From contig NZ_PRDB01000022.1 of assembly GCF_002925905.1 (NCBI RefSeq), forward strand, positions 7,033 through 39,032: a stretch of 32,000 nt of DNA. Direction: 5' to 3'. Source of the stretch: Klebsiella michiganensis (GTDB lineage Bacteria; Pseudomonadota; Gammaproteobacteria; Enterobacterales; Enterobacteriaceae). Made by a program: the position numbers and the translations under genes. This document shows positions 3,501-24,845 of this stretch, piece after piece. Below the pieces are notes generated by a model. It was not told the DNA's origin. It searched no databases and saw only the letters and a list, made by a program, of their open reading frames with translations. Each line of letters opens with the position of its first letter. Position 1 is the stretch's first letter.

Positions 3501-3680
3501 CTACACAGTCATGGCCAGAGGCAATGACTGGGTTTTACACAGGACGGTGAACGTTACCATCATGGCGTGGCGGTTTCTTACATCTGCGATTGCTCCCTGA
3601 ACGATTTCCGAGAGGCGTTCGTAGGTAGAGCAGGGAAGCCAGCCGGGTCAGCGCGGCACAAACCGGCGCACCGTTATGCC
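3501..3680 (-). pseudogene. C-terminal fragment of an IS1202-group (ISNCY) transposase gene
   Basis: The minus-strand translation PGWLPCSTYERLSEIVQGAIADVRNR... aligns by eye with NGTLLPYSTYDRLSEIDQGAIVDNKR of the intact transposase at 18649-20052. An in-frame TGA lies upstream (3648-3650). There is no start codon, and the lipocalin gene abuts it. Confidence 0.45.
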
Positions 3681-6929: not shown

Positions 6930-7823
6930 GTGGATGAATTAAAGGTTTTTTTAACAGTGGCCAGGCTGAAAAGCTTTACCAAAGCCGCAGCTGAAATAGG
7001 TGTGACACCCTCAGCCATCAGCCACACGGTGAAATCTCTTGAGGAAAGGCTTGGGATCCGCCTGCTGGCCAGAACCACCCGCAGTATCTCCACTACGGAA
7101 GCAGGTGAAAGGCTCATTAACGAAGTTGGCCCGTTAATGGAACAGGTTGATGATGCTATTAGTCGGTTGAGTGAGCTTAGGGAAAAACCCACTGGCGTCA
7201 TACGCCTCACGGCGGCAGATGATGTTATCCAGTATTTGATCCGTCCTGTATTACCGGACTTTCTGAGTCGCTACCCAGATATTCAGATTGAAATCGGCAT
7301 TGACTATGGATTTACAGATATTGTTGATCAGCGTTTTGATGCCGGGATTCGTCCGGGCGATGTTCTGAATAATGATATGATTGCCGCAAAAATAAGCCAG
7401 AACTGGCGCCAGCTTGTTGTTGCTGCACCAGATTATTTTAAGCGTTATGCTAAGCCCAGGAAGCCGCAGGATCTTTTGAACCACAACTGCATTAACGTCC
7501 GCTATTCTGATACGAGTGGATTGTACGCCTGGGAATTCGAGAAAGATGCTCAGAAATTCAGTCTGAAAGTCAAAGGGCAATATATTGCGAACAGCACGAT
7601 TCATCAGCTCGATGCAGCATTAGACGGGCTGGGGATTGCCTATATTCCCGAGTATGTTGCAGATGGATATATCAAAAGCGGCAAGCTGATTGCTGTTCTG
7701 ACCGAGTGGTGTCCATATTTTGACGGCTACCATATTTATTATCCTCACCGCCGACAGGATTCTCCTGCGTTTATGGCTTTTCTGCAAGTTTTGCGTGACA
7801 GGTACAATAATGGAATAAGATAA
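6930..7823 (+). CDS. LysR-family transcriptional regulator
   Basis: GTG start. The N-terminal wHTH is [36 protein letters not shown]. It is divergent from the ADH gene. Confidence 0.85.
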
Positions 7824-7899
7824 ATTTATGAGTAAAGGATTATGTCCACGATAAGCACCTGGGTCGATTCCTGGGAGGCGGCCATGAGGGTAGGGAAGC

Positions 7900-8002
7900 G
7901 CCGTCCCGTCAAGTCAGCGTAATGCTCTGCCAGTGTTACAACCAATTAACCAATTCTGATTAGAAAAACTCATCGAGCATCAGAGATTTTGAGACACAAC
8001 GT
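7900..8002 (-). pseudogene. aph(3')-Ia: relic of the Tn903 central segment: aph(3')-Ia 3' end fused to its own upstream region, ORF deleted
   Basis: GCCGTCCCGTCAAGTCAGCGTAATGCTCTGCCAGTGTTACAACCAATTAACCAATTCTGATTAGAAAAACTCATCGAGCATCA matches, from memory, the widely used Tn903 kan region downstream of and including the last codons. It is joined at CATCA (7978-7982) to GAGATTTTGAGACACAACGT, which is the region upstream of the kan promoter. Confidence 0.75.
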
Positions 8003-8221
8003 GGTTCCCGCCATGTGAAAATCCGGCCAGACCAACATCATTCTGGCGCTCCGAAAGAAGGGATATTCGCCGCCGTGACCAGCCTGAAGCGGGTCGCATA
8101 ATCTTTGGCCGCTTCGTAGTCGAGGAACATGGCATCGAGCGTGCCAATAAATTTTGAGCTTGATAGGATTTTGATGTTATGCTATGGAAAAGGATTATTT
8201 ACAGGTCTGGAGGTAATTTAT

Positions 8222-8575
8222 ATGACGCCAAAAGAAATACTTTGCCAATGGGTTGACGCATTTAATAATGCAGATGTAGAAACTATTTCAGAATTATATG
8301 ATGATAATGCAATAAACCATCAGGTAGCCAATGAGCCAGTTATTGGGAAAGAGGCTATAAAGAAAATGTTTGAACAAGATTTTTCTTTTCCAGAAATGGT
8401 TTGTATAGTTGAAAACATTTTCGAAGATGGACAATGGGCAATTTTAGAGTGGCGTGCCCCATTAGGTTTGAGGGGTTGCGGTTTTTTTCAAATAGTAAAT
8501 AATAAAATTATATTTCAAAGAGGCTATTGGGATAAGCTATCTTTCTTAAAACAGCACAATTTACCTATTGAATAA
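8222..8575 (+). CDS. NTF2/SnoaL-like fold protein (117 aa)
   Basis: The ATG at 8222 is preceded by GGAGGT. WVDAFNNADVETISELYDDNAINH is the typical SnoaL-like N-terminus. The gene is very AT-rich. Confidence 0.6.
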   Translation: MTPKEILCQWVDAFNNADVETISELYDDNAINHQVANEPVIGKEAIKKMFEQDFSFPEMVCIVENIFEDGQWAILEWRAPLGLRGCGFFQIVNNKIIFQRGYWDKLSFLKQHNLPIE

Positions 8576-8576
8576 A

Positions 8577-8599
8577 ATTCATATATACCTTATATGAAT
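8577..8599 (+). terminator. AT-rich hairpin immediately after the NTF2-like gene
   Basis: ATTCATATA/TATATGAAT 9-bp stem with a 5-nt loop, starting 2 nt after the stop. A second perfect 10-bp hairpin, TTAAGGGAAG/CTTCCCTTAA, lies at 8626-8653. Neither has a clear U-tract. Confidence 0.3.
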
Positions 8600-8689
8600 A
8601 GCTTGCAAATTTCTTAAAGTGTGCATTAAGGGAAGCATAATAACTTCCCTTAACCAATCTGTGGATTCTTTACACCATCGTATAATGTG

Positions 8690-9276
8690 ATCCTGCTTTT
8701 CCAGGTAGCCCCGGGTGGCCTCAAAATAGGTGAATGTCGATTCCGGTTTTACAAATCGAAGCTGCATCAGGTGGCTCGTCGCGTCGTCGACGTAGATCAG
8801 TGCGGTACAGGCGGGTGCACGGTTCTCGAACCAGCGATGGTTGCTTGCAGCCATCAATCTGCATCAGTTCGCCGCAGCAGGCCCGGCGATAGCGTGGCTG
8901 CTGAATCTTTGGTGCTCGTTGTTTGCGGGGGATCCAGAGACCGGCTTTGACCATGAGTGAACGGACAGTCTCTTTGGACAGGTGAACATCGTGCAGTTCT
9001 GCGAGTTTCACATATGCAAGCGTCGGCCCAAAGTCGGTATAGCGATCTCGGATTATATTGAGCGCGTACTGTGCAAAACCATCAGGCAGCTGGTTATTGC
9101 TCAGGGTTCCTCAACGGCGGTTAGCCATACAAAGCGGGCCAGATTCACGGTAACGCGACAGAAGACGCCGGCACTGACGAGCGGAGATACCGTGGCGCTG
9201 CGCGGGCATCTGCGTTGTCAGGTGCCGGTCGACAACATGGGTTAACTTCATCCAAAGTAAAAAACTGCGCTGAATG
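8690..9276 (-). pseudogene. N-terminal ~200 codons of a second, diverged IS1202-group transposase gene, multiply frameshifted and 3'-truncated
   Basis: Three minus-strand frames align by eye to residues ~8-205 of the intact copy. Examples are FTLDEVN, HGISARQCRRLLSRYRESGPL, TDFGPTLAYVKLAELH, AGLWIPRKQRAPKIQQPRYRR, GELMQIDG and APACTALIYVDDATSHLMQLRFVKPESTFTYFEATRGYLEKQ. Similarity stops abruptly at ~8690. Confidence 0.75.
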
Positions 9277-9347
9277 GGCCAGAGCAGAATCCCGGGATGG
9301 TTAACTGAGTTCTGATCAAAACCGCATAATCTTGCTGCCTCTACCTT

Positions 9348-16666: not shown

Positions 16667-17723
16667 GGCTTTGTTGAATAAATCGAACTTTTGCTGAGTT
16701 GAAGGATCAGATCACGCATCTTCCCGACAACGCAGACCGTTCCGTGGCAAAGCAAAAGTTCAAAATCACCAACTGGCCCACCTACAATAAAGCCCTCATC
16801 AACCGTGGCTCCATAACTTTCTGGCTGGATGATGAAGCTATTCAGGCCTGGTATGAGTCGGCAACGCCTTCATCACGGGGAAGACCTCAGCGCTATTCTG
16901 ATCTCGCCATCACCACCGTTCTGGTCATTAAACGCGTGTTCAGGTTGACCCTGCGGGCTGCACAGGGTTTTATTGATTCCATTTTTACACTGATGAATGT
17001 TCCGTTGCGCTGCCCGGATTACACCAGTGTCAGCAAGCGCGCAAAGTCGGTTAATGTCAGTTTCAAAACGTTCACCCGGGGTGAAATCGCGCATCTGGTG
17101 ATTGATTCCACCGGGCTGAAGGTCTTTGGTGAAGGCGAATGGAAAGTCAAAAAACACGGCAAAGAACGCCGTCGTATATGGCGAAAGTTGCATCTGGCAG
17201 TTGACAGCAACACACATGAAATCATCTGTGCAGACCTGTCGCTGAACAATGTGACGGACTCAGAAGCCTTCCCGGGTCTTATCCGGCAGACTCACAGAAA
17301 AATCAGGGCAGCATCGGCAGACGGCGCTTACGACACCCGGCTCTGTCATGATGAACTGCGGCGTAAGAAAATCAGCGCGCTTATCCCACCCCGAAAAGGC
17401 GCGGGTTACTGGCCCGGTGAATATGCAGACCGTAACCGTGCAGTGGCTAATCAGCGAATGACCGGGAGTAATGCGCGGTGGAAATGGACAACAGATTACA
17501 ACCGTCGCTCGATAGCGGAAACGGCGATGTACCGGGTAAAACAGCTGTTCGGGGGTTCACTGACGCTGCGTGACTACGATGGTCAGGTTGCGGAGGCTAT
17601 GGCCCTGGTACGAGCGCTGAACAAAATGACGAAAGCAGGTATGCCTGAAAGCGTGCGTATTGCCTGAAAACACAACCCGCTACGGGGGAGACTTACCCGA
17701 AATCTGATTTATTCAACAAAGCC
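16667..17723 (+). mobile_element. IS903 (IS5 family), complete 1057-bp copy
   Basis: The termini are GGCTTTGTTGAATAAATCG ... TGATTTATTCAACAAAGCC. The 9-bp direct duplication GCAATCAGG is at 16658-16666 and 17724-17732. Confidence 0.95.
16744..17667 (+). CDS. IS903 transposase (307 aa, GTG start)
   Basis: VAKQKFKITNWPTYNKALINRGS... matches the IS903 transposase as I remember it. The TTG start at 16699 in the ORF track is probably too long. Confidence 0.9.
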   Translation: MAKQKFKITNWPTYNKALINRGSITFWLDDEAIQAWYESATPSSRGRPQRYSDLAITTVLVIKRVFRLTLRAAQGFIDSIFTLMNVPLRCPDYTSVSKRAKSVNVSFKTFTRGEIAHLVIDSTGLKVFGEGEWKVKKHGKERRRIWRKLHLAVDSNTHEIICADLSLNNVTDSEAFPGLIRQTHRKIRAASADGAYDTRLCHDELRRKKISALIPPRKGAGYWPGEYADRNRAVANQRMTGSNARWKWTTDYNRRSIAETAMYRVKQLFGGSLTLRDYDGQVAEAMALVRALNKMTKAGMPESVRIA

Positions 17724-17975
17724 GCAATCAGGTTATGAGCCGTCGCGCTACCGCAAAAATTCTACGTCCCATGTCATCGCAGTTCGGAACCGCTCAGCAT
17801 AAATCGTTCACAAATCCATTATAGTGTGGCGTTGCAAGGAGAAAAAGTGTTTTGCTGTGTCTGTCGACTTTTGTCAAAGCTCAATTGAAATGTCCTTTAT
17901 CCGGCTCAATTAAAATGTCCACTTTGATCTCAGATTCTCTTTGCTGATAGACTTTCCTTCGACTGAAACAACAGG

Positions 17976-18620
17976 ATGATTGATCTCATGCTTCGATACG
18001 AGTTAACGCCGAACAATGCAGGTTTTATACTGTGGGGAGATTCAGAAGCCCTGAATGAATTGCACGAACTCGTTCATTACATCGTGGATGAAAGCCCACT
18101 GATTAAAGTTAAAGACGGATTTATGTTATCCCTTGCCTATGATATTCGTAAAGCGCGGGAAGGTAATCGTCGTGTTGAGCAACATCAGTATGATCAACAT
18201 GATACATATAAGCTTTATGGTGTTGAGATTTTATGGCCTCTGGTCCTGGTTCAGTCCTCAATACTCAGAAACTCAATGGGTTATATTCAGACAGACAAAA
18301 ACCAGCTGTCTGTCATGTATGCCTTTGAATACCTGATAGAATCAGCATTAACAGAGTCTGACCGAACAACGTCGAATGATATTATGCAAACAGCAAAATA
18401 TGCATCAGACTCTGATTTTAATTTCATTGAGGATAATATTGACAGCAGGTGCTGCTATTTTATCAGCTTATCTCCGGAGCAAAGAAAAAAGCAGTTAATC
18501 AGTATTGTTCGCTCTTTTGATTCATTATGGGGTAAGTATGCCCGTGAAAAGCAGGACATAAAGATGCTGAACGAAATGAATAATACATCATGGGTCTGGC
18601 CGGACAATATCAACTGGTGA
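17976..18620 (+). CDS. IS passenger protein of unknown function (214 aa)
   Basis: AT-rich ORF entirely inside the IS boundaries and convergent with the transposase gene. No motif recognised. Confidence 0.6.
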   Translation: MIDLMLRYELTPNNAGFILWGDSEALNELHELVHYIVDESPLIKVKDGFMLSLAYDIRKAREGNRRVEQHQYDQHDTYKLYGVEILWPLVLVQSSILRNSMGYIQTDKNQLSVMYAFEYLIESALTESDRTTSNDIMQTAKYASDSDFNFIEDNIDSRCCYFISLSPEQRKKQLISIVRSFDSLWGKYAREKQDIKMLNEMNNTSWVWPDNINW

Positions 18621-18648
18621 GCAACAACCGTCCGGTCAGTGAGTACCA

Positions 18649-20052
18649 TCAGCGGGCTCTTTTACCAAAAATATCCTCTGAACGTGACTGAAGCTGTTTG
18701 AGTGCTTCGAGCATGTCATCATTATCCAGTGAGCGCTGGGATTTCTTCCCTTCCTGCTTTGGCCGTCGTCGGGAAGGGCCATCACCAGCGGGAATTGACT
18801 GAGAGCGCGTGTTATCCCGCTTGCTCTGCACCAGACTGATAAACTCCAGGGTTCGGCCAAGACGCTTGTTATCGACAATCGCGCCCTGGTCGATTTCTGA
18901 CAGTCGGTCGTAAGTAGAGTAGGGAAGTAACGTACCGTTCAGGCGCAGCTCTTTTCTGCCATCAGGATAGTGATACACATCGATATATTTACCTATTGCA
19001 CGGCGACTCAGCTCGCTGTCTTCAATCAGGTACAACATTTTATCATATTGTATCGTCAACGATTTTGAGACTTTACGTTTTTCACGAACAGTGAAAATAA
19101 GCTCCAAGTCTTCATCATGTTCTACAGCACGGTGTACGTCAAAATCATGTCGCGGTACTTTGCCAAAACGGCGGTTATAGTCAGCCATATAGGCCTCAGC
19201 GAAGTCATTTGCAGCCTCCATTGAGCAAATGCCCTGTAACCGCAGTTCTTTTACCAGACGATCCTGTAAAGTCAGGTGAGCACGTTCTACACGCCCTTTG
19301 GCGGGGCTGGTTTCTGCACAGATAGTCTGGATGTTCAGTTCATGCATGGCTCGCCCAAACTGAGTATGTCCGTCTCCGCCTGTGGCGTGTTTATTGTTAA
19401 CACGAAAAACACCAGCTTTATCGCTGTACAGTGCCAGCGGTTTACCATGCTTATCAATATAGCGCCGCGTGGCTTCAAAGTAAGAAAACGTGGACTCCGA
19501 TTTAACAAACAACAGTTCCATCAGTTTGCTGGTTGCATCATCAACGTAGACCAGCGCTGTGCAGGCCGGGCCACGGCCTTCAAACCAGTCATGATCACAG
19601 CCGTCAATCTGTATCAGTTCACCAGTGCAAGGACGCCGGTACCGTGGTTGAGGGATCCTTGCGGCGCGTTGTTTACGGGGGATCCATAAACCAGCCCGGA
19701 CCATGATGCGCCGGACTGTTTCTTTGCCAAGAAACAGTCCGTGGAGCTCTTCGAGCTTTTCACGCGCGAGAGTTGGACCGAAATCAGCATAACGCGTCTT
19801 GATCAGTTCCAGAGCCTCGTCTGCGAGCCCGGGAGGCAACTGACGGTTACCACGCATGCCACATCGTCTGCTGGCCATACCAAGCGGACCGCCTTCACGG
19901 TAACGAGCAAGAAGACGGCGGCATTGTCTGTCGCTGATACCAAGGTGCTCGGCCGCACGACGCGTTGTGATGCGACGTTCGATGACGTCCTGTATAATCT
20001 TAACCCGGTTGATCTCTTTCAAAGTAAACACTCCTGAGCTTTCTGCGCTCAT
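18649..20052 (-). CDS. IS1202-group DDE transposase (HTH + rve/integrase core)
   Basis: 467 aa. N-terminal HTH AAEHLGISDRQCRRLLARYREGG. Integrase-core motifs are IQIDGCDHDWF, ALVYVDDATS, LYSDKAGVF and ICAETSPAKGRVER. Confidence 0.85.
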   Translation of the reverse strand: MSAESSGVFTLKEINRVKIIQDVIERRITTRRAAEHLGISDRQCRRLLARYREGGPLGMASRRCGMRGNRQLPPGLADEALELIKTRYADFGPTLAREKLEELHGLFLGKETVRRIMVRAGLWIPRKQRAARIPQPRYRRPCTGELIQIDGCDHDWFEGRGPACTALVYVDDATSKLMELLFVKSESTFSYFEATRRYIDKHGKPLALYSDKAGVFRVNNKHATGGDGHTQFGRAMHELNIQTICAETSPAKGRVERAHLTLQDRLVKELRLQGICSMEAANDFAEAYMADYNRRFGKVPRHDFDVHRAVEHDEDLELIFTVREKRKVSKSLTIQYDKMLYLIEDSELSRRAIGKYIDVYHYPDGRKELRLNGTLLPYSTYDRLSEIDQGAIVDNKRLGRTLEFISLVQSKRDNTRSQSIPAGDGPSRRRPKQEGKKSQRSLDNDDMLEALKQLQSRSEDIFGKRAR

Positions 20053-20154
20053 GATATGCCTCCCGGTAGTTTAAACGGACCAGTGAAGCTTACCATAACG
20101 CGGACATCTGAATTGAGCCACAGGCGGACATTACTATTGAGCCCCTACAACTTT

Positions 20155-20182
20155 GGTGCGCATAATGTATATTATGTTAAAT
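20155..20182 (+). other. dif: chromosomal dif site (XerC arm GGTGCGCATAA, core TGTATA, XerD arm TTATGTTAAAT)
   Basis: 28/28 identity to the E. coli dif consensus GGTGCGCATAATGTATATTATGTTAAAT. Confidence 0.9.
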
Positions 20183-20365
20183 GCCATTAAAGAAGCCGAG
20201 TCTGCCGCAATGCGCCCCCATACCCTTACCTTACCCCGCGCTAAGCCGGGATATTCAAATCATTTCCAGTCGCTAAAGAACTAACGCCATCGTGTCATCC
20301 ACCTGCCGCCGCAAAGCCTGGGAGCGCCTTCCGTCACGCGCAGCTCTCACTCATATCGCGCAGAC

Positions 20366-21364
20366 TCAGGAGTCTGACCCGGTGTGCCTGTTCGATGGCG
20401 TCGCTCCCTGCTGCTCTTTGGGCAATAATGAGCGAGGCGAGATTCCAAAGGCTTTGCGGAAGGCGTGGCTGAAATGAGAGAAATCAGAGAAGCCGAAATC
20501 CAGCGCCGCCTGGGACACGCTACTGACTCGTCCGCGTTCGAGGGCCTCTCGGCTCGCTCGCAGCCTCTCCTGCCAAATCACGGCCATCGGCGTTTTTTTG
20601 TGGCGGGCGAAAGCACGCGTGACGGTGCGAATGGAAACATGGTGCGCCCGAGCCAGGCTCTCAATGTTCAAATCTGGATCGACAAGCTGCCGCCGAATGT
20701 AAATCATCATCCTGGCGTACAGATCGCGCTCAGCACTCACGTTATCCAGATCCTGCAATTCCAGACTCAGCACCAGCAGATCCAGCATCGTCTGGGAGAA
20801 ACGGCCAGAAATATCTGGGTTGTCCAGACACGCGGGCATCGCTGTCGCCTGACGCAGCATTTCACGCAGTGGAATCACGCCGGGCCGACTGTCATCCAGT
20901 ACCATAGCGGTGAGCGTTTCAATCCTCGGCAAACGACAACTCAGCAGATGCCGCGGGATCCGCACCAGGTGATTATCGCCCCCACCCAGGCTGAAACTGA
21001 ACGTCTGCGCGGCGTCGTATAACACCAGGCTATCCGCCGCCAGCGCCGCCTTGCGCCCTCCCTGTTCAAGCTGGCCGTACCCGCCTTGCATATAGCCCAG
21101 CCACAGATCGTCGTCTGGCCCCTGCCTCAGATAACGTGCGGTGCGTTCCCAGCGGTGCAACGGCGCGGACAACGAACAGATATCCACCATCCCCACCCCG
21201 CGTACCGCAAGCCGGGCGTCAAAGTCGACCCCAGCCATGGGCACGCTGGCGGCCGGAATGCAGTGACGCAACACCACGTCGTTCCAATACTCGAAGCGGC
21301 GCGACTCGGCAACGCCAATGGTCGAATAGTGGGAGCAGACCGCAGACGGCATGATGCTATTCAT
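20366..21364 (-). CDS. AraC-family transcriptional regulator
   Basis: C-terminal double HTH: IESLARAHHVSIRTVTRAFARH ... SQAALDFGFSDFSHFSHAFRKAFGISP. It is divergent from the nitrile hydratase cluster. Confidence 0.85.
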   Translation of the reverse strand: MNSIMPSAVCSHYSTIGVAESRRFEYWNDVVLRHCIPAASVPMAGVDFDARLAVRGVGMVDICSLSAPLHRWERTARYLRQGPDDDLWLGYMQGGYGQLEQGGRKAALAADSLVLYDAAQTFSFSLGGGDNHLVRIPRHLLSCRLPRIETLTAMVLDDSRPGVIPLREMLRQATAMPACLDNPDISGRFSQTMLDLLVLSLELQDLDNVSAERDLYARMMIYIRRQLVDPDLNIESLARAHHVSIRTVTRAFARHKKTPMAVIWQERLRASREALERGRVSSVSQAALDFGFSDFSHFSHAFRKAFGISPRSLLPKEQQGATPSNRHTGSDS

Positions 21365-21764
21365 AATTGCTCACCTCGCACCTTAATTCCCGCATCAATA
21401 ACAGACACGGGTTCACAGACAGCAACTATCGTGCCAGCACTCAGATGTCCCTCCAGCTCTCACTCGCATCCGCGCTAAGGCAGAGGAAATATCGCTGACG
21501 CTCCGTCGATGCGCCAGGCGTCCCACGTCGCGAATGGCGTCGAAAAAGCGAGAACCGCACTCAAGGTGTGCACATCTGCGCTATGACGGAGCATCACGCT
21601 ATGGGCCTTTTCAGCCTGCCCGCCCGTTGTCCCTGCCAGCCAAACGACTGTCCTTATGAAACAAGTACGCAGCAAATTTCTCCCTAATATCTGTAACCGT
21701 AAGGTCTTCCGGCCACGTTGGTACCGGGAAATAAACAAGAGATATCAGACATGAGGGTAACGTT

Positions 21765-22658
21765 ATGACTGTTAGTGGCACCACATCTCGTATCAGCCTG
21801 GTCGCCTGCACACTCTGGCTGGCGACGATCCCGGCCCATGCGGTCGATCTCAACTCACAGGATCTCATTCCGGCTCCTGCCGGTACCGATGCCATTCTGG
21901 CGTATTTCACCTACGCCACGCGAGACAGCTTTACCCCCACAGGTGGCGACGAAATTAAGCAAGGCACCGGGCTGGACTCCTTCGTCAGCATCTTTCGTTA
22001 CGTCCACTATATGGATGTGGGAGGCTTCACGGTCGCGCCGCAGGTGCTGATGCCCTACGGACGTCTTTATAACGGCTCCCTGGGCGGTACCCGCCTCGAT
22101 TCCGCCAGCGGCCTGGGCGACCCCATTCTGGCCGCCCCGGTCTGGCTGGTGAACAACCCCAGCACCACCTTCGCCCTCGTGCCCTACCTGTACGTCCCTG
22201 CCGGTTCCTACGATGCCGGGCGCACGCTCAACGTCGGTGAGAACCGCTGGAAGTTCGATCTGCAGCTTGGCGGCGTGCAGCAGCTTGGTAACGGTTTCGC
22301 CACGCAGCTGTCCGCTGATGCGATGTGGTATGGCGACAACGACGATGCCACGGGCATCGGCACCGGCCGCCTCAAACAAGACAACACCTATCAATTTCAG
22401 GGCTGGGTAAGCTGGACGCCGCCCGCAGACAACACCTGGACCGTCTCCGCCGGTTACGCCAAATTGTGGGGCGGTAAGCAGCAGATCGACGGCGTCGAGA
22501 ACGGACAAGCGACGCGTTCGGATCAGGTAAGGCTGGAATTGTCGAAATTCATCACCCCCACGGTGCAAGTGCAGGGCTTGCTCCAACGCGACATCAACGT
22601 CGATGGCGGTTTTAAGGAAGATCTCCACACCACCCTGCGCGTGATGAAACTGTTCTGA
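21765..22658 (+). CDS. outer-membrane beta-barrel channel (MetA-pathway/phenol-degradation-like transporter family)
   Basis: Signal peptide ...LWLATIPAHA. There are alternating beta-strand patterns and a C-terminal aromatic residue (MKLF). The family assignment is from memory of PAPAGTDA...YxxY-type N-termini. Confidence 0.6.
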   Translation: MTVSGTTSRISLVACTLWLATIPAHAVDLNSQDLIPAPAGTDAILAYFTYATRDSFTPTGGDEIKQGTGLDSFVSIFRYVHYMDVGGFTVAPQVLMPYGRLYNGSLGGTRLDSASGLGDPILAAPVWLVNNPSTTFALVPYLYVPAGSYDAGRTLNVGENRWKFDLQLGGVQQLGNGFATQLSADAMWYGDNDDATGIGTGRLKQDNTYQFQGWVSWTPPADNTWTVSAGYAKLWGGKQQIDGVENGQATRSDQVRLELSKFITPTVQVQGLLQRDINVDGGFKEDLHTTLRVMKLF

Positions 22659-22712
22659 TTGAACAGAGGCCTATACACCCCCTTCCACTCACATGTTACG
22701 GAGAAATCCACC

Positions 22713-23195
22713 ATGAGCGAACAGCAGCAAAAGCCGTCTCTCTATGAACGTCTCGGCGGGTATGACGCCGTCTACGCCTTCGCAGGCGAAGTGTTGAAGA
22801 CCTGTATGAAGCATCCCGACATCGGCCATATCTGGGCGCACGTGTCCGAGTCTTCATTTCAGAAAGAGCATATCAACTTCGTTGATTTCTTGTGCAAGCA
22901 CTGGGGTGGCAACACCGTCTATCGGGGACGAGATATGGTGACCGCGCACCGCGGCATGGGGCTGACCGAGGTGCACTGGAAAGCCGTATTCGAGTCTATC
23001 GACGAGTGTTACGAAAACTTCAATGTGCCGCAGGATATTCGTGAAGAGGTCAACGCTTTCCTGACCCAATTCAAGCCCGCGGTCATCGGCAGTCCTTCGT
23101 ATCGCGACGTGGTGCTCTCACATCCGGACATGGACGTGACCAAAGGCATGAAAAGTGTCGGTATCCACTGGCCTAAAGCCGATAAGCCGTCTTAA
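22713..23195 (+). CDS. truncated (2-on-2) globin-family protein
   Basis: The ATG at 22713 follows GGAGA. SLYERLGGYDAVYAFAGEV... and FLCKHWGGNTVYRGRDMVTAHRGMGL, with a candidate proximal His, fit the group-I truncated hemoglobin pattern. Confidence 0.7.
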   Translation: MSEQQQKPSLYERLGGYDAVYAFAGEVLKTCMKHPDIGHIWAHVSESSFQKEHINFVDFLCKHWGGNTVYRGRDMVTAHRGMGLTEVHWKAVFESIDECYENFNVPQDIREEVNAFLTQFKPAVIGSPSYRDVVLSHPDMDVTKGMKSVGIHWPKADKPS

Positions 23196-23203
23196 CACCT
23201 TAC

Positions 23204-23234
23204 GGACACCCGCAGGCTGCGCGGGTGTCCATTT
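23204..23234 (+). terminator. hairpin after the globin gene
   Basis: GGACACCCGC/GCGGGTGTCC 10-bp stem with a 7-nt loop, followed by ATTT. Confidence 0.5.
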
Positions 23235-23330
23235 CAGCCAAACGACTGACCCGGATAACCAAGTCAGGATGGCATTCCGGGCTTATGTTCAAGACAGGCG
23301 CATGAGCAAACACAGAAAAAAGGAAACAAC

Positions 23331-24845
23331 ATGGCTATTCAACGTCCCACTGCTGAACAACTCCAGGAGCTTGCCAGTCGGCTGCATATCAGCCTGACGC
23401 CGGCGCAGGCCGAGGAATATCTGGCGGTGATGCAGGCTAACTTCGACGCTTACGATCTGATCGACTCCCTTCCCGACGATATCCCGGAGGTCCGCTATCC
23501 GCGCGCCGCCGGCTATCGTCCGACTGGCGAGGACAATCCGCTCAATGCCTGGTATTACAAAACGGAGGTAAAAGGTGCAGCGACTGGCGCGCTGGCCGGG
23601 CGGACCATCGCTCTGAAAGACAATGTCTCGCTCGCCGGCGTACCGATGATGAACGGCGCCTCCACGCTCGAAGGTTTCGTCCCATCCTACGACGCGACCG
23701 TGGCCACCCGCCTGCTGGATGCCGGGGCGACGATTCTCGGCAAAGCCACCTGCGAGCACTTCTGCCTCTCCGGCGGAAGCCACACTTCCGACCCGGCCCC
23801 GGTGCACAATCCCCATCGTCATGGCTATTCCTCCGGCGGTTCGTCCTCCGGCAGCGCCGCACTGGTGGCGGCTGGCGAAGTGGACATGGCGATAGGCTGC
23901 GATCAGGGCGGTTCCATCCGTATCCCTTCCGCCTTCTGTGGTACCTACGGCATGAAACCGACCCACGGTCTGGTGCCTTACACGGGCATCATGCCGATTG
24001 AGGCGACCATCGACCACGCCGGTCCCATCACCGCCAACGTGCGCGACAACGCACTGATGCTGGAAACCATCGCCGGGAGTGACGGGCTTGACCCGCGTCA
24101 GTACGCGCCCGTTGTAGAGAGCTATACCGCCGCCCTCGGAAAAGGTGTGCGCGGCCTGAAAATCGGCATTCTGACCGAGGGATTCCAGTTGCCGAATATG
24201 GACCCGCAGGTAGAAACGAAGGTGCGGGACGCCATCGCCCGCCTGCAAGCACTGGGCGCCATTGTTAGCGAAATTTCCGTGCCGGAACACAATCTGGCGG
24301 GCGCGCTTTGGTCGCCTATCGGCTGCGAAGGTCTGACCGCCCAGATGATGCACGGCAACGGCATGGGTTTTAACTGGGAAGGCCAGTACGACGTCAGCCT
24401 GCTGGACAAACACGCGCAATGGCGCGACAGCGCGGATGCCCTCTCCCCGTCGCTCAAAGTTTGCATGTTCGTCGGCCAGTATGGGCTGGAGCGCTATAAC
24501 GGTCGCTACTACGCCAGAGCGCAGAATATCGCGCGTCGGGCCCGCGCCGGCTACGACCGGGCCCTGAGCGATTTCGATCTGCTGGTGATGCCTACCGTGC
24601 CTGTGCTCGCTCAGCCAATACCAGGCCCGGACTGCTCCATCACCGAATACATCTCGCGCGCTTTCGAAATGATCGGTAACACCGCTGCGCAGGACATCAC
24701 CGGTCACCCGGCCATGTCTATCCCCTGTGGCATGGTCGACGGACTTCCGGTTGGCATGATGCTGGTAGGACGTCATTACGCTGAAAACACGCTCTATCAG
24801 GCCGCCGCCGCTTTCGAAGCCTGCGGTGACTGGCGGACGTTTTAA
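23331..24845 (+). CDS. amidase (amidase-signature family)
   Basis: AS signature [36 protein letters not shown]. 504 aa with an AAGGA RBS. Confidence 0.9.

Follow-up and report, generated by a model that had tools for sequence, protein, structure and literature searches.

In a 32,000-nucleotide stretch of Klebsiella michiganensis DNA (contig NZ_PRDB01000022.1 of assembly GCF_002925905.1, positions 7,033 to 39,032; hereafter the window), an intact copy of the insertion sequence (IS) ISKpn21 stands at the right end of a filamentous prophage, next to the chromosomal Xer recombination site dif. We consider it very likely that the element transposed to a target of the kind it prefers, 5 bp beyond the XerC arm of a dif that integration of the phage had rebuilt. 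Loci from other assemblies that were compared with the window are given below as L numbers.

ISKpn21 and its junctions beside dif

The features that define the insertion, with its target site duplication of 5 bp (TSD) and its inverted repeats, left (IRL) and right (IRR), are as follows.
17872 to 20149, minus strand: ISKpn21 (IS1202 family, ISAba32/ISAjo2 subgroup), 2278 bp; IRL is the right-hand end, beside dif, and IRR the left-hand end
17867 to 17871, no strand: left copy of the TSD, ACTTT, 5 bp, from sequence reading; fits the A-Y-N-T-T bias of 38 surveyed insertions
20150 to 20154, no strand: right copy of the TSD, ACTTT, 5 bp, from sequence reading; the XerC arm begins at the next base
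20155 to 20182, plus strand: chromosomal dif, 28 bp, with XerC arm GGTGCGCATAA (20155-20165), central region TGTATA and XerD arm TTATGTTAAAT
18649 to 20052, minus strand: intact transposase gene, 467 amino acids (aa); NCBIfam transpos_ISNCY_2, Pfam HTH_28, HTH_23 and HTH_32 (N-terminal)
17976 to 18620, plus strand: passenger gene for a DUF6904 protein, 214 aa; Pfam PF21845, E = 3e-48
17872 to 17920, plus strand: IRR and one subterminal copy of the 17-bp motif GCTCAATNNNAATGTCC, from repeat analysis; tip TGTCAA
20102 to 20149, minus strand: IRL and one subterminal copy of the 17-bp motif GCTCAATNNNAATGTCC, from repeat analysis

The left junction reads CTGTCG-ACTTT-TGTCAAAGCTCAAT, with the IS starting at 17872, and the right junction reads ATTGAGCCCCTACA-ACTTT-GGTGCGCATAA TGTATA TTATGTTAAAT through to 20182. 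An earlier note on this DNA had described a 2278-bp element with TGT...ACA ends, subterminal repeats and ACTTT at both 17867-17871 and 20150-20154, all of which can be read directly in the sequence. It had also placed the duplication against dif and the IS 5 bp from the XerC arm, and the IS does end at 20149, followed by the spacer at 20150-20154 and by the arm from 20155. The letters of the left terminus are TGTCAAAGCTCAATTGAAATGTCC and those of the right-hand end, before ACTTT, are GGACATTACTATTGAGCCCCTACA; the terminal inverted repeats are imperfect, with 17 of 24 positions identical between TGTCAAAGCTCAATTGAAATGTCC and TGTAGGGGCTCAATAGTAATGTCC. Each end contains two copies of the 17-bp motif, a terminal one and a second lying 7-8 bp inward (GCTCAATTGAAATGTCC and GCTCAATTAAAATGTCC at 17879-17895 and 17904-17920; inverted partners at 20102-20118 and 20126-20142). 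This agrees with the description of the subgroup in the literature, in which imperfect inverted repeats of about 24-26 bp begin with TGT and the binding motif recurs 7-10 bp further inside. These ends were fixed independently of the TSD, as full-length megablast matches (query 1-2278) to E. coli RefSeq genomes stop exactly there in many different flanks. Because the ends were set in this way, the identity of the 5 bp on both sides can be given a probability of about 1/1024 by chance. The tip of IRR, TGTCAA, is TTGACA when read outward, which fits the junction-promoter idea of Siguier et al. (preprint).

As the earlier note had it, the transposase gene (18649-20052, minus strand) faces dif with its 5' end, and its start codon is 102 bp from dif. 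The protein matches NCBIfam transpos_ISNCY_2 with E = 4e-149 and 496.7 bits (cut-off 250); this match and the RefSeq 'ISKpn21 family' labels on copies that are 96-100% identical bear out the assignment to the IS1202 group made from the sequence alone. Megablast against all complete E. coli genomes found the element at 72 places in 52 genomes, 27 of them chromosomal and 45 on plasmids, and every one is annotated 'ISNCY-like element ISKpn21 family transposase' with DUF6904. Nucleotide identity to these RefSeq 'ISKpn21 family' copies is 96.2-100%. The copy in the window represents the rarer variant: 5 E. coli records match it at 100% and most others at about 96.5%. The tip of its IRL is CCCCTACA instead of CCATTACA. 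Published ISKpn21 has a length of 2278 bp, a 5-bp TSD, a 467-aa transposase and an extra open reading frame (Harmer, Pong & Hall 2023, PMC10132070). A TSD of 5 bp is that of the 5-6 bp subgroup of the family, as opposed to the 16-17 bp and 27-28 bp subgroups, and 467 aa lies within the 400-500 aa by which the single transposase of the IS1202 family is recognised; the ISAba32 subgroup of Siguier et al. is the ISAjo2-type short-TSD group of Harmer et al. (PMC10132070). Judged by its RefSeq labels and by the published length, TSD and transposase size, it is ISKpn21 itself or else an isoform very near to it.

The DUF6904 passenger protein had no PADLOC defence-system match and no NCBIfam match. 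It would not be needed for targeting, as relatives of ISKpn21 without it also lie at dif-like sites. ISKpn21-type sequences with 74-100% identity also occur in assemblies labelled Streptomyces malaysiensis (L087, a 651-bp contig), and in a Veillonella and a Bacillota metagenome-assembled genome (L037 and L036); these copies are most likely due to contamination or mis-binning and not to true hosts.

The 28-bp site at 20155-20182 agrees at 28 of 28 positions with the consensus of E. coli dif. It is the sole match in the window even when up to 3 mismatches are allowed, and no match was found in 100 shuffles. The FtsK-orienting polar sequences (KOPS; GGGNAGGG) switch polarity at this point, with 5 on the plus strand to the left and 2 on the minus strand to the right, and cumulative GC skew has its maximum at about 18-20 kb in the window. 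Because the dif match is unique, the KOPS flip there and the skew peaks there, this is the true terminus site. A single KOPS motif lies within ISKpn21 (GGGAAGGG at 18771-18778) and is directed toward dif like those of the flanks; since it is one motif, its agreement with the flank polarity in the obligatory orientation of the IS may be chance. The 28-bp core of dif is unaltered by the insertion and would be expected to stay functional. Dimer resolution is probably unaffected by the IS, because the core is untouched, the KOPS motif of the IS points toward dif and the arrangement persists in many assemblies.

An origin of this DNA in E. coli was rejected, since megablast of the flank to the right of dif (20155-23500) against 5,426 E. 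coli genomes gave nothing. The AraC-family gene found in that flank is also present in K. michiganensis-type chromosomes, e.g. CP044109 (FDAARGOS_647). In one read-assembly contig (L093, 12156-17200), lysis and tail genes of a tailed phage follow directly after the XerD arm in place of the AraC-family gene; the sequence on the XerD side of this contig could be an insertion, a rearrangement or a chimeric join.

Targeting of Xer sites by ISKpn21 and its relatives

The position of ISKpn21 in the window follows a published rule. In all the examples that Harmer et al. (PMC10132070) looked at, ISKpn21 lay 5 bp from dif or a dif-like site, on the C side. In the Siguier et al. preprint, 61 of 166 family members lie 5-6 bp from an Xer site, all of them in the ISAba32 subgroup, and IRL is always beside the XerC arm. 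The same preprint (Figs 5C and 7) places ISKpn21 at chromosomal dif in several strains of Klebsiella and of Serratia, including K. pneumoniae ARLG-3226, and describes tandem ISKpn21 copies as well as several family members stacked at one dif. The earlier note had referred to reports of a subgroup of IS1202 elements beside XerC/D sites, and both papers confirm this.

We surveyed relatives with a protein-guided scan of one genome per species, which gave 80 loci with relatives of 54-100% identity. Of these, the 66 loci whose sequence reached 170 nt or more upstream of the transposase were scored, with 1.16 Mb scanned on both strands. A dif-like site was defined by the enterobacterial consensus as having at most 4 of 21 mismatches to GTGCGCATAA-N6-TTATGTTAAAT, on the expected strand and immediately beyond IRL. 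Such a site was present directly beyond IRL in 38 of the 66 relatives, with a 6-bp spacer between the arms in all 38, and the ACA or ATA tip of the element was exactly 5 bp from the XerC arm in 35 of them. Elsewhere in the 1.16 Mb there was one further dif-like site only. Adjacency to dif-like sites varied with transposase identity. It was seen in 27 of 31 relatives with 66-94% identity and in 6 of 9 with at least 95%; the 54-65% group scored 4 of 26 and consisted mostly of betaproteobacteria, whose sites the enterobacterial consensus probably undercounts. Across the surveyed targets the XerD arm was almost invariant and the XerC arm variable, and the duplicated 5 bp were biased towards A-Y-N-T-T, which ACTTT fits.

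Chromosomal copies sampled from E. coli behaved in the same way, with all 7 of 7 beside dif (next to hipA) or a dif-like site. Sister genomes of the window carry separate ISKpn21 insertions at the same dif with other TSDs, ATCTC in L002 and ATGTT in L008. Copies and relatives were found overwhelmingly beside Xer sites, and not at the many unrelated places that would have told against the earlier note.

Some loci in E. coli show other arrangements. In the ECONIH5 chromosome (L001, 16533-20500), an ISLad2-family element lies side by side with a 100%-identical ISKpn21; the flanks of the pair are mismatched (ATGTT and GACTT), and it stands beside the dif-like sequence AGTGCATATAA CGTGGA TTATGTTAAAT, upstream of two integrase genes. 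This is a stacking of two family members at an Xer-like site away from the terminus. The context of this 100%-identical copy differs from that of the window, and this too spoke against an E. coli origin of the window. In E. coli G5 (L104) and TC24 (L106), the XerC arm GGTGCGCATAA beside ISKpn21 is followed by a central region that is not that of dif and by a variant XerD arm or none (TGTGTG ACTCGTTATGT and TGAACC TTATGTTGAAT, respectively). These two sites look like the hybrid left junctions of Xer-integrated elements that arrived after the IS, similar to the position of the fossil IS in the window that is described below.

The filamentous prophage and the rebuilt XerC arm

The prophage and its attachment sites are laid out as follows.
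9359 to 17871, plus strand: filamentous prophage, from PHROGs, Pfam labels on identical loci and its exact insertion relative to L011
9348 to 9381, plus strand: hybrid left attachment site attL, with chromosomal XerC arm AGTGCGCATAA, 12-nt phage central region TGTGATCAGGGA and XerD-like phage arm TTATGTAAAAA
9414 to 9441, minus strand: second phage dif-like site, inverted, partner in the attP hairpin, GTTGCGCATAA TGGGGA TTATGCAAAAG
10056 to 11063: prophage Rep (Rep_trans), PHROGs/Pfam
11089 to 11397: prophage G5P-like protein, PHROGs/Pfam
13916 to 14989: prophage Zot-like protein, PHROGs/Pfam
14962 to 16161: prophage secretin (pIV), PHROGs/Pfam

Coat and minor proteins are also encoded (PHROGs), and between 9359 and 17871 there is no recombinase gene except the transposase of an IS903-type element. 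A 32-nt loop separates the XerD-like arm of attL from the inverted second site, and the bulged hairpin expected of attP forms when its reconstituted plus strand is folded (-35.6 kcal/mol, z = -8.8), where the packaged strand was assumed from gene orientation. The prophage had no nucleotide match in the GenBank phage collection at 'distant' sensitivity. A relaxed scan to the left of the phage for additional dif-like sites gave 29 matches, several overlapping the three real sites, compared with a shuffle mean of 15.5 and a maximum of 22, and revealed nothing convincing beyond those three.

A close relative, L011, has the exact empty site for the phage and ISKpn21 together, with window position 9361 joined directly to 20150. 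The two elements have therefore been inserted precisely where the XerC arm meets the central region. The native site in L011, AGTGCGCATAA, has A at position 1 of the arm; in the window the A is kept at attL and G is found at attR, the split predicted for strand exchange on the XerC side with phage attP. As read from these sequences, the phage supplied the XerC arm and the ACTTT that is duplicated at the IS, and the central region and XerD arm are chromosomal. The G could also be a host polymorphism, as L003 has G without the phage; this was rejected, given that the flank allele of the window matches L011 (A) and that A is kept at attL. In a related prophage (L097, 91%), the homologous right end is fused directly to GGTGCGCATAATGTATATTATGTTAAAT with no IS. 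Together with the empty site in L011, this supports the statement of the earlier note that removal of the IS restores a phage right end fused to dif.

ISKpn21 might instead have inserted into the replicative form of the phage, beside the XerC arm of attP, and then have entered the chromosome as cargo. In every assembly examined that encodes an identical secretin, neither the position of ISKpn21 nor its TSD differs, and an IS-free copy of the exact phage was not found. In a 91%-related phage (L096; IMG/VR uncultivated viral genome 2728369121, 6955-8849), the identical position, after GTCGACTTT, is occupied by another IS1202-family element that is not ISKpn21; this IS encodes a 452-aa transposase and has the IRR TGTCTAGCCAATGTTGAAATGTCG, and the contig ends within it, so that its far junction lies outside the contig. 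However, the assemblies with identical secretins share flanks of at least 99.97% identity and their co-occurrence can be clonal descent, a double-stranded attP would have a 12-nt central region where 38 of 38 surveyed targets have 6 nt, and the related prophage L097 has no IS. The junction expected of the circular form, IS-ACTTT-GGTGCGCATAA-TGTGATCAGGGA, was not found in the metagenome collection, nor was the attP junction GGTGCGCATAA-TGTGATCAGGGA found in the viral collection. Arrival as phage cargo is, in our estimation, very improbable.

A further possibility is that the IS was acquired from another ISKpn21 copy next to a dif, through gene conversion or homologous recombination. In L094, identity to the window is 97.3% over 17721-20154, which comprises some 150 bp of flank, the IS and the right TSD, on a background that is 99.99% identical, and this drop suggests exchange between IS variants. 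Such an exchange would act on an IS already present, and the copy in the window is bounded by 5 bp of local phage sequence duplicated without a mismatch, the mark that direct insertion leaves. The probability that the IS first reached this site by recombination is, to our mind, close to negligible.

Several points weigh against direct transposition to a preferred site as the account of this locus. The exact phage without ISKpn21 was not found, either among the loci with identical secretins or with the restored-junction pattern in viral and metagenome contigs. Two of the nine near-identical copies in the survey lack a convincing Xer site (L045, and also L014, where there is a very degenerate one), and a third, L037, adjoins the end of another IS. 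Targeting is a strong preference and not absolute, and the low betaproteobacterial score (4 of 26) may reflect only the enterobacterial consensus. The mechanism by which the target is recognised is called speculation in the published papers.

Layered insertions at dif

Two further insertions frame the sequence of events.
About 8640 to 9344, minus strand: fossil IS1202-family element; frameshifted, truncated N-terminal part, found by tblastn with residues 20-201 of the ISKpn21 transposase at 64-73% identity
16667 to 17723, plus strand: IS903-group IS (IS5 family), 1057 bp; 9-bp TSD GCAATCAGG at 16658-16666 and 17724-17732

The IRL-side end of the fossil is 3 bp (CTT) from the chromosomal XerC arm AGTGCGCATAA at 9348-9358. 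Native dif in L005, L007, L010 and L011 reads ...GCTGCCTCTAC CTT AGTGCGCATAA TGTATA TTATGTTAAAT, and the left part of this sequence is the same fossil. Because it adjoins native dif in several K. michiganensis-type genomes, the fossil is old and fixed. Its 3-bp spacing recalls that of ISSen13 (Table 8 of PMC10132070). The IS903-type element lies in the non-coding right end of the prophage and is the most recent event in the window, because it is absent from the otherwise at least 99.97%-identical L092, L093 and L095.

The fossil IS inserted first beside the ancestral dif, an event common to many relatives. The phage then integrated by XerC-mediated exchange and pushed the fossil 10.8 kb away. 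ISKpn21 would next have inserted beside the rebuilt dif, with IRL and the 5' end of its transposase gene toward it, duplicating ACTTT, and the IS903-type element entered the right end of the prophage last. The phage probably preceded ISKpn21, although no IS-free copy of the exact phage was found. Transposition may have followed a copy-out-paste-in route through a circular intermediate, as the literature on circles suggests; ISKpn21 circles with 5 bp between the ends are credited to Hudson et al. (2014) in the Siguier et al. preprint. At this locus in a metagenome assembly (L094, 12100-12182), ISKpn21 occurs head to tail as IRL-ACTTT-IRR, which could be a tandem, a circle junction or an assembly effect. 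The transposase may recognise the XerCD-bound site or its architecture and not plain sequence, with the conserved XerD arm probably the main determinant.

Older remains lie further to the left. Two short fragments that resemble the C-terminal part of IS1202-family transposases were seen on the minus strand at 1473-1556 and 3519-3638 (28 residues at 57% identity and 47 residues at 45%) and may be older layers of the same stacking. Both fall in a low-GC variable block between a peptidase (AAT) gene and dif, and the whole block is missing in L007. At 7940-8005 (breakpoint about 7978-7982) there is a deletion scar of aphA1 (aph(3')-Ia), in which the 3' end and the upstream region are left and joined at a short microhomology. 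The full 271-aa aphA1 gene is present in L002-L005, and its product there is identical at 262-271 of 271 residues to the Tn903 protein. Origin of aphA1 in K. michiganensis has been published, with an ISKpn21 copy reported nearby and dif unmentioned (PMC12670165).

In the window a dated stack is kept at one dif, of fossil IS, phage, ISKpn21 and IS903, which shows that phage integration displaces older IS copies from dif and that an IS that hunts dif accepts an XerC arm from a phage. Empty sites are available in close relatives for the phage and ISKpn21 jointly and for IS903; for ISKpn21 alone the empty site is only in the 91%-related prophage. A broader idea, which we regard as very unlikely, is competition between IS1202-family elements and Xer-exploiting filamentous phages for the same few base pairs of dif, where both would stack, with the phages serving as vehicles for the IS. 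If so, each phage integration would rebuild a fresh target and each IS insertion would end up in the right end of a prophage. Were a second phage copy then integrated, rolling-circle replication between prophage origins would package the IS and could spread it between species. That two related phages have different IS1202-family elements at one and the same nucleotide is compatible with phages as vehicles, and it is equally explained by ordinary targeting of dif.

The earlier note had implied that a chromosomal dif in an enterobacterium was a new setting for such an IS. This did not hold up, as the case has already been published and is also common, with the 27 chromosomal places in E. coli RefSeq genomes. 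The window is an instance of the published, already known behaviour of a named IS. What it adds is small: the phage context, a phage-derived XerC arm, a fossil IS at attL and a related phage in which a second IS occupies the same nucleotide. Phages and integrative mobile elements exploiting Xer (IMEX) go unmentioned in both Harmer et al. (PMC10132070) and the Siguier et al. preprint. The value of the locus is that of a clean, well-controlled example rather than a discovery.

In comparison with known systems, the IS shows no essential difference from ISKpn21 as described, with the same length, transposase, TSD, TGT ends, passenger open reading frame and IRL placed 5 bp from the XerC arm. The same IS is found beside the single chromosomal dif in K. 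pneumoniae ARLG-3226 and other Klebsiella and Serratia strains, where stacking likewise occurs. The prophage resembles IMEX of the CTXphi type from Vibrio cholerae in being a filamentous phage without an integrase, with two inverted dif-like sites that fold in the plus strand. The crossover at the boundary of XerC arm and central region is also shared, as is a layout in which dif is regenerated at one end of the prophage and the other end has a hybrid site and an intact inverted one, which is reportedly what CTXphi integration leaves (Val et al. 2005). The two belong to different phage lineages, and this prophage encodes its own secretin, whereas CTXphi is not known to encode one. By analogy with CTXphi, a prophage of this type that stands alone would not be expected to yield virions, and the presence of the IS would make no difference to this.

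Both published studies of the family (Harmer et al., PMC10132070; Siguier et al. preprint) compare its targeting to that of Tn7 at attTn7. With Tn7 and other safe-haven transposons ISKpn21 shares an oriented insertion at a fixed distance from an essential, conserved site that is left intact. Unlike Tn7, it has a single DDE transposase without a known target-selector protein, and its target is the binding site of a recombinase and not the end of a gene. To explain how one DDE transposase might read the XerCD site from a set distance and in only one orientation, contact with XerC/XerD or recognition of the architecture of the site has been proposed.

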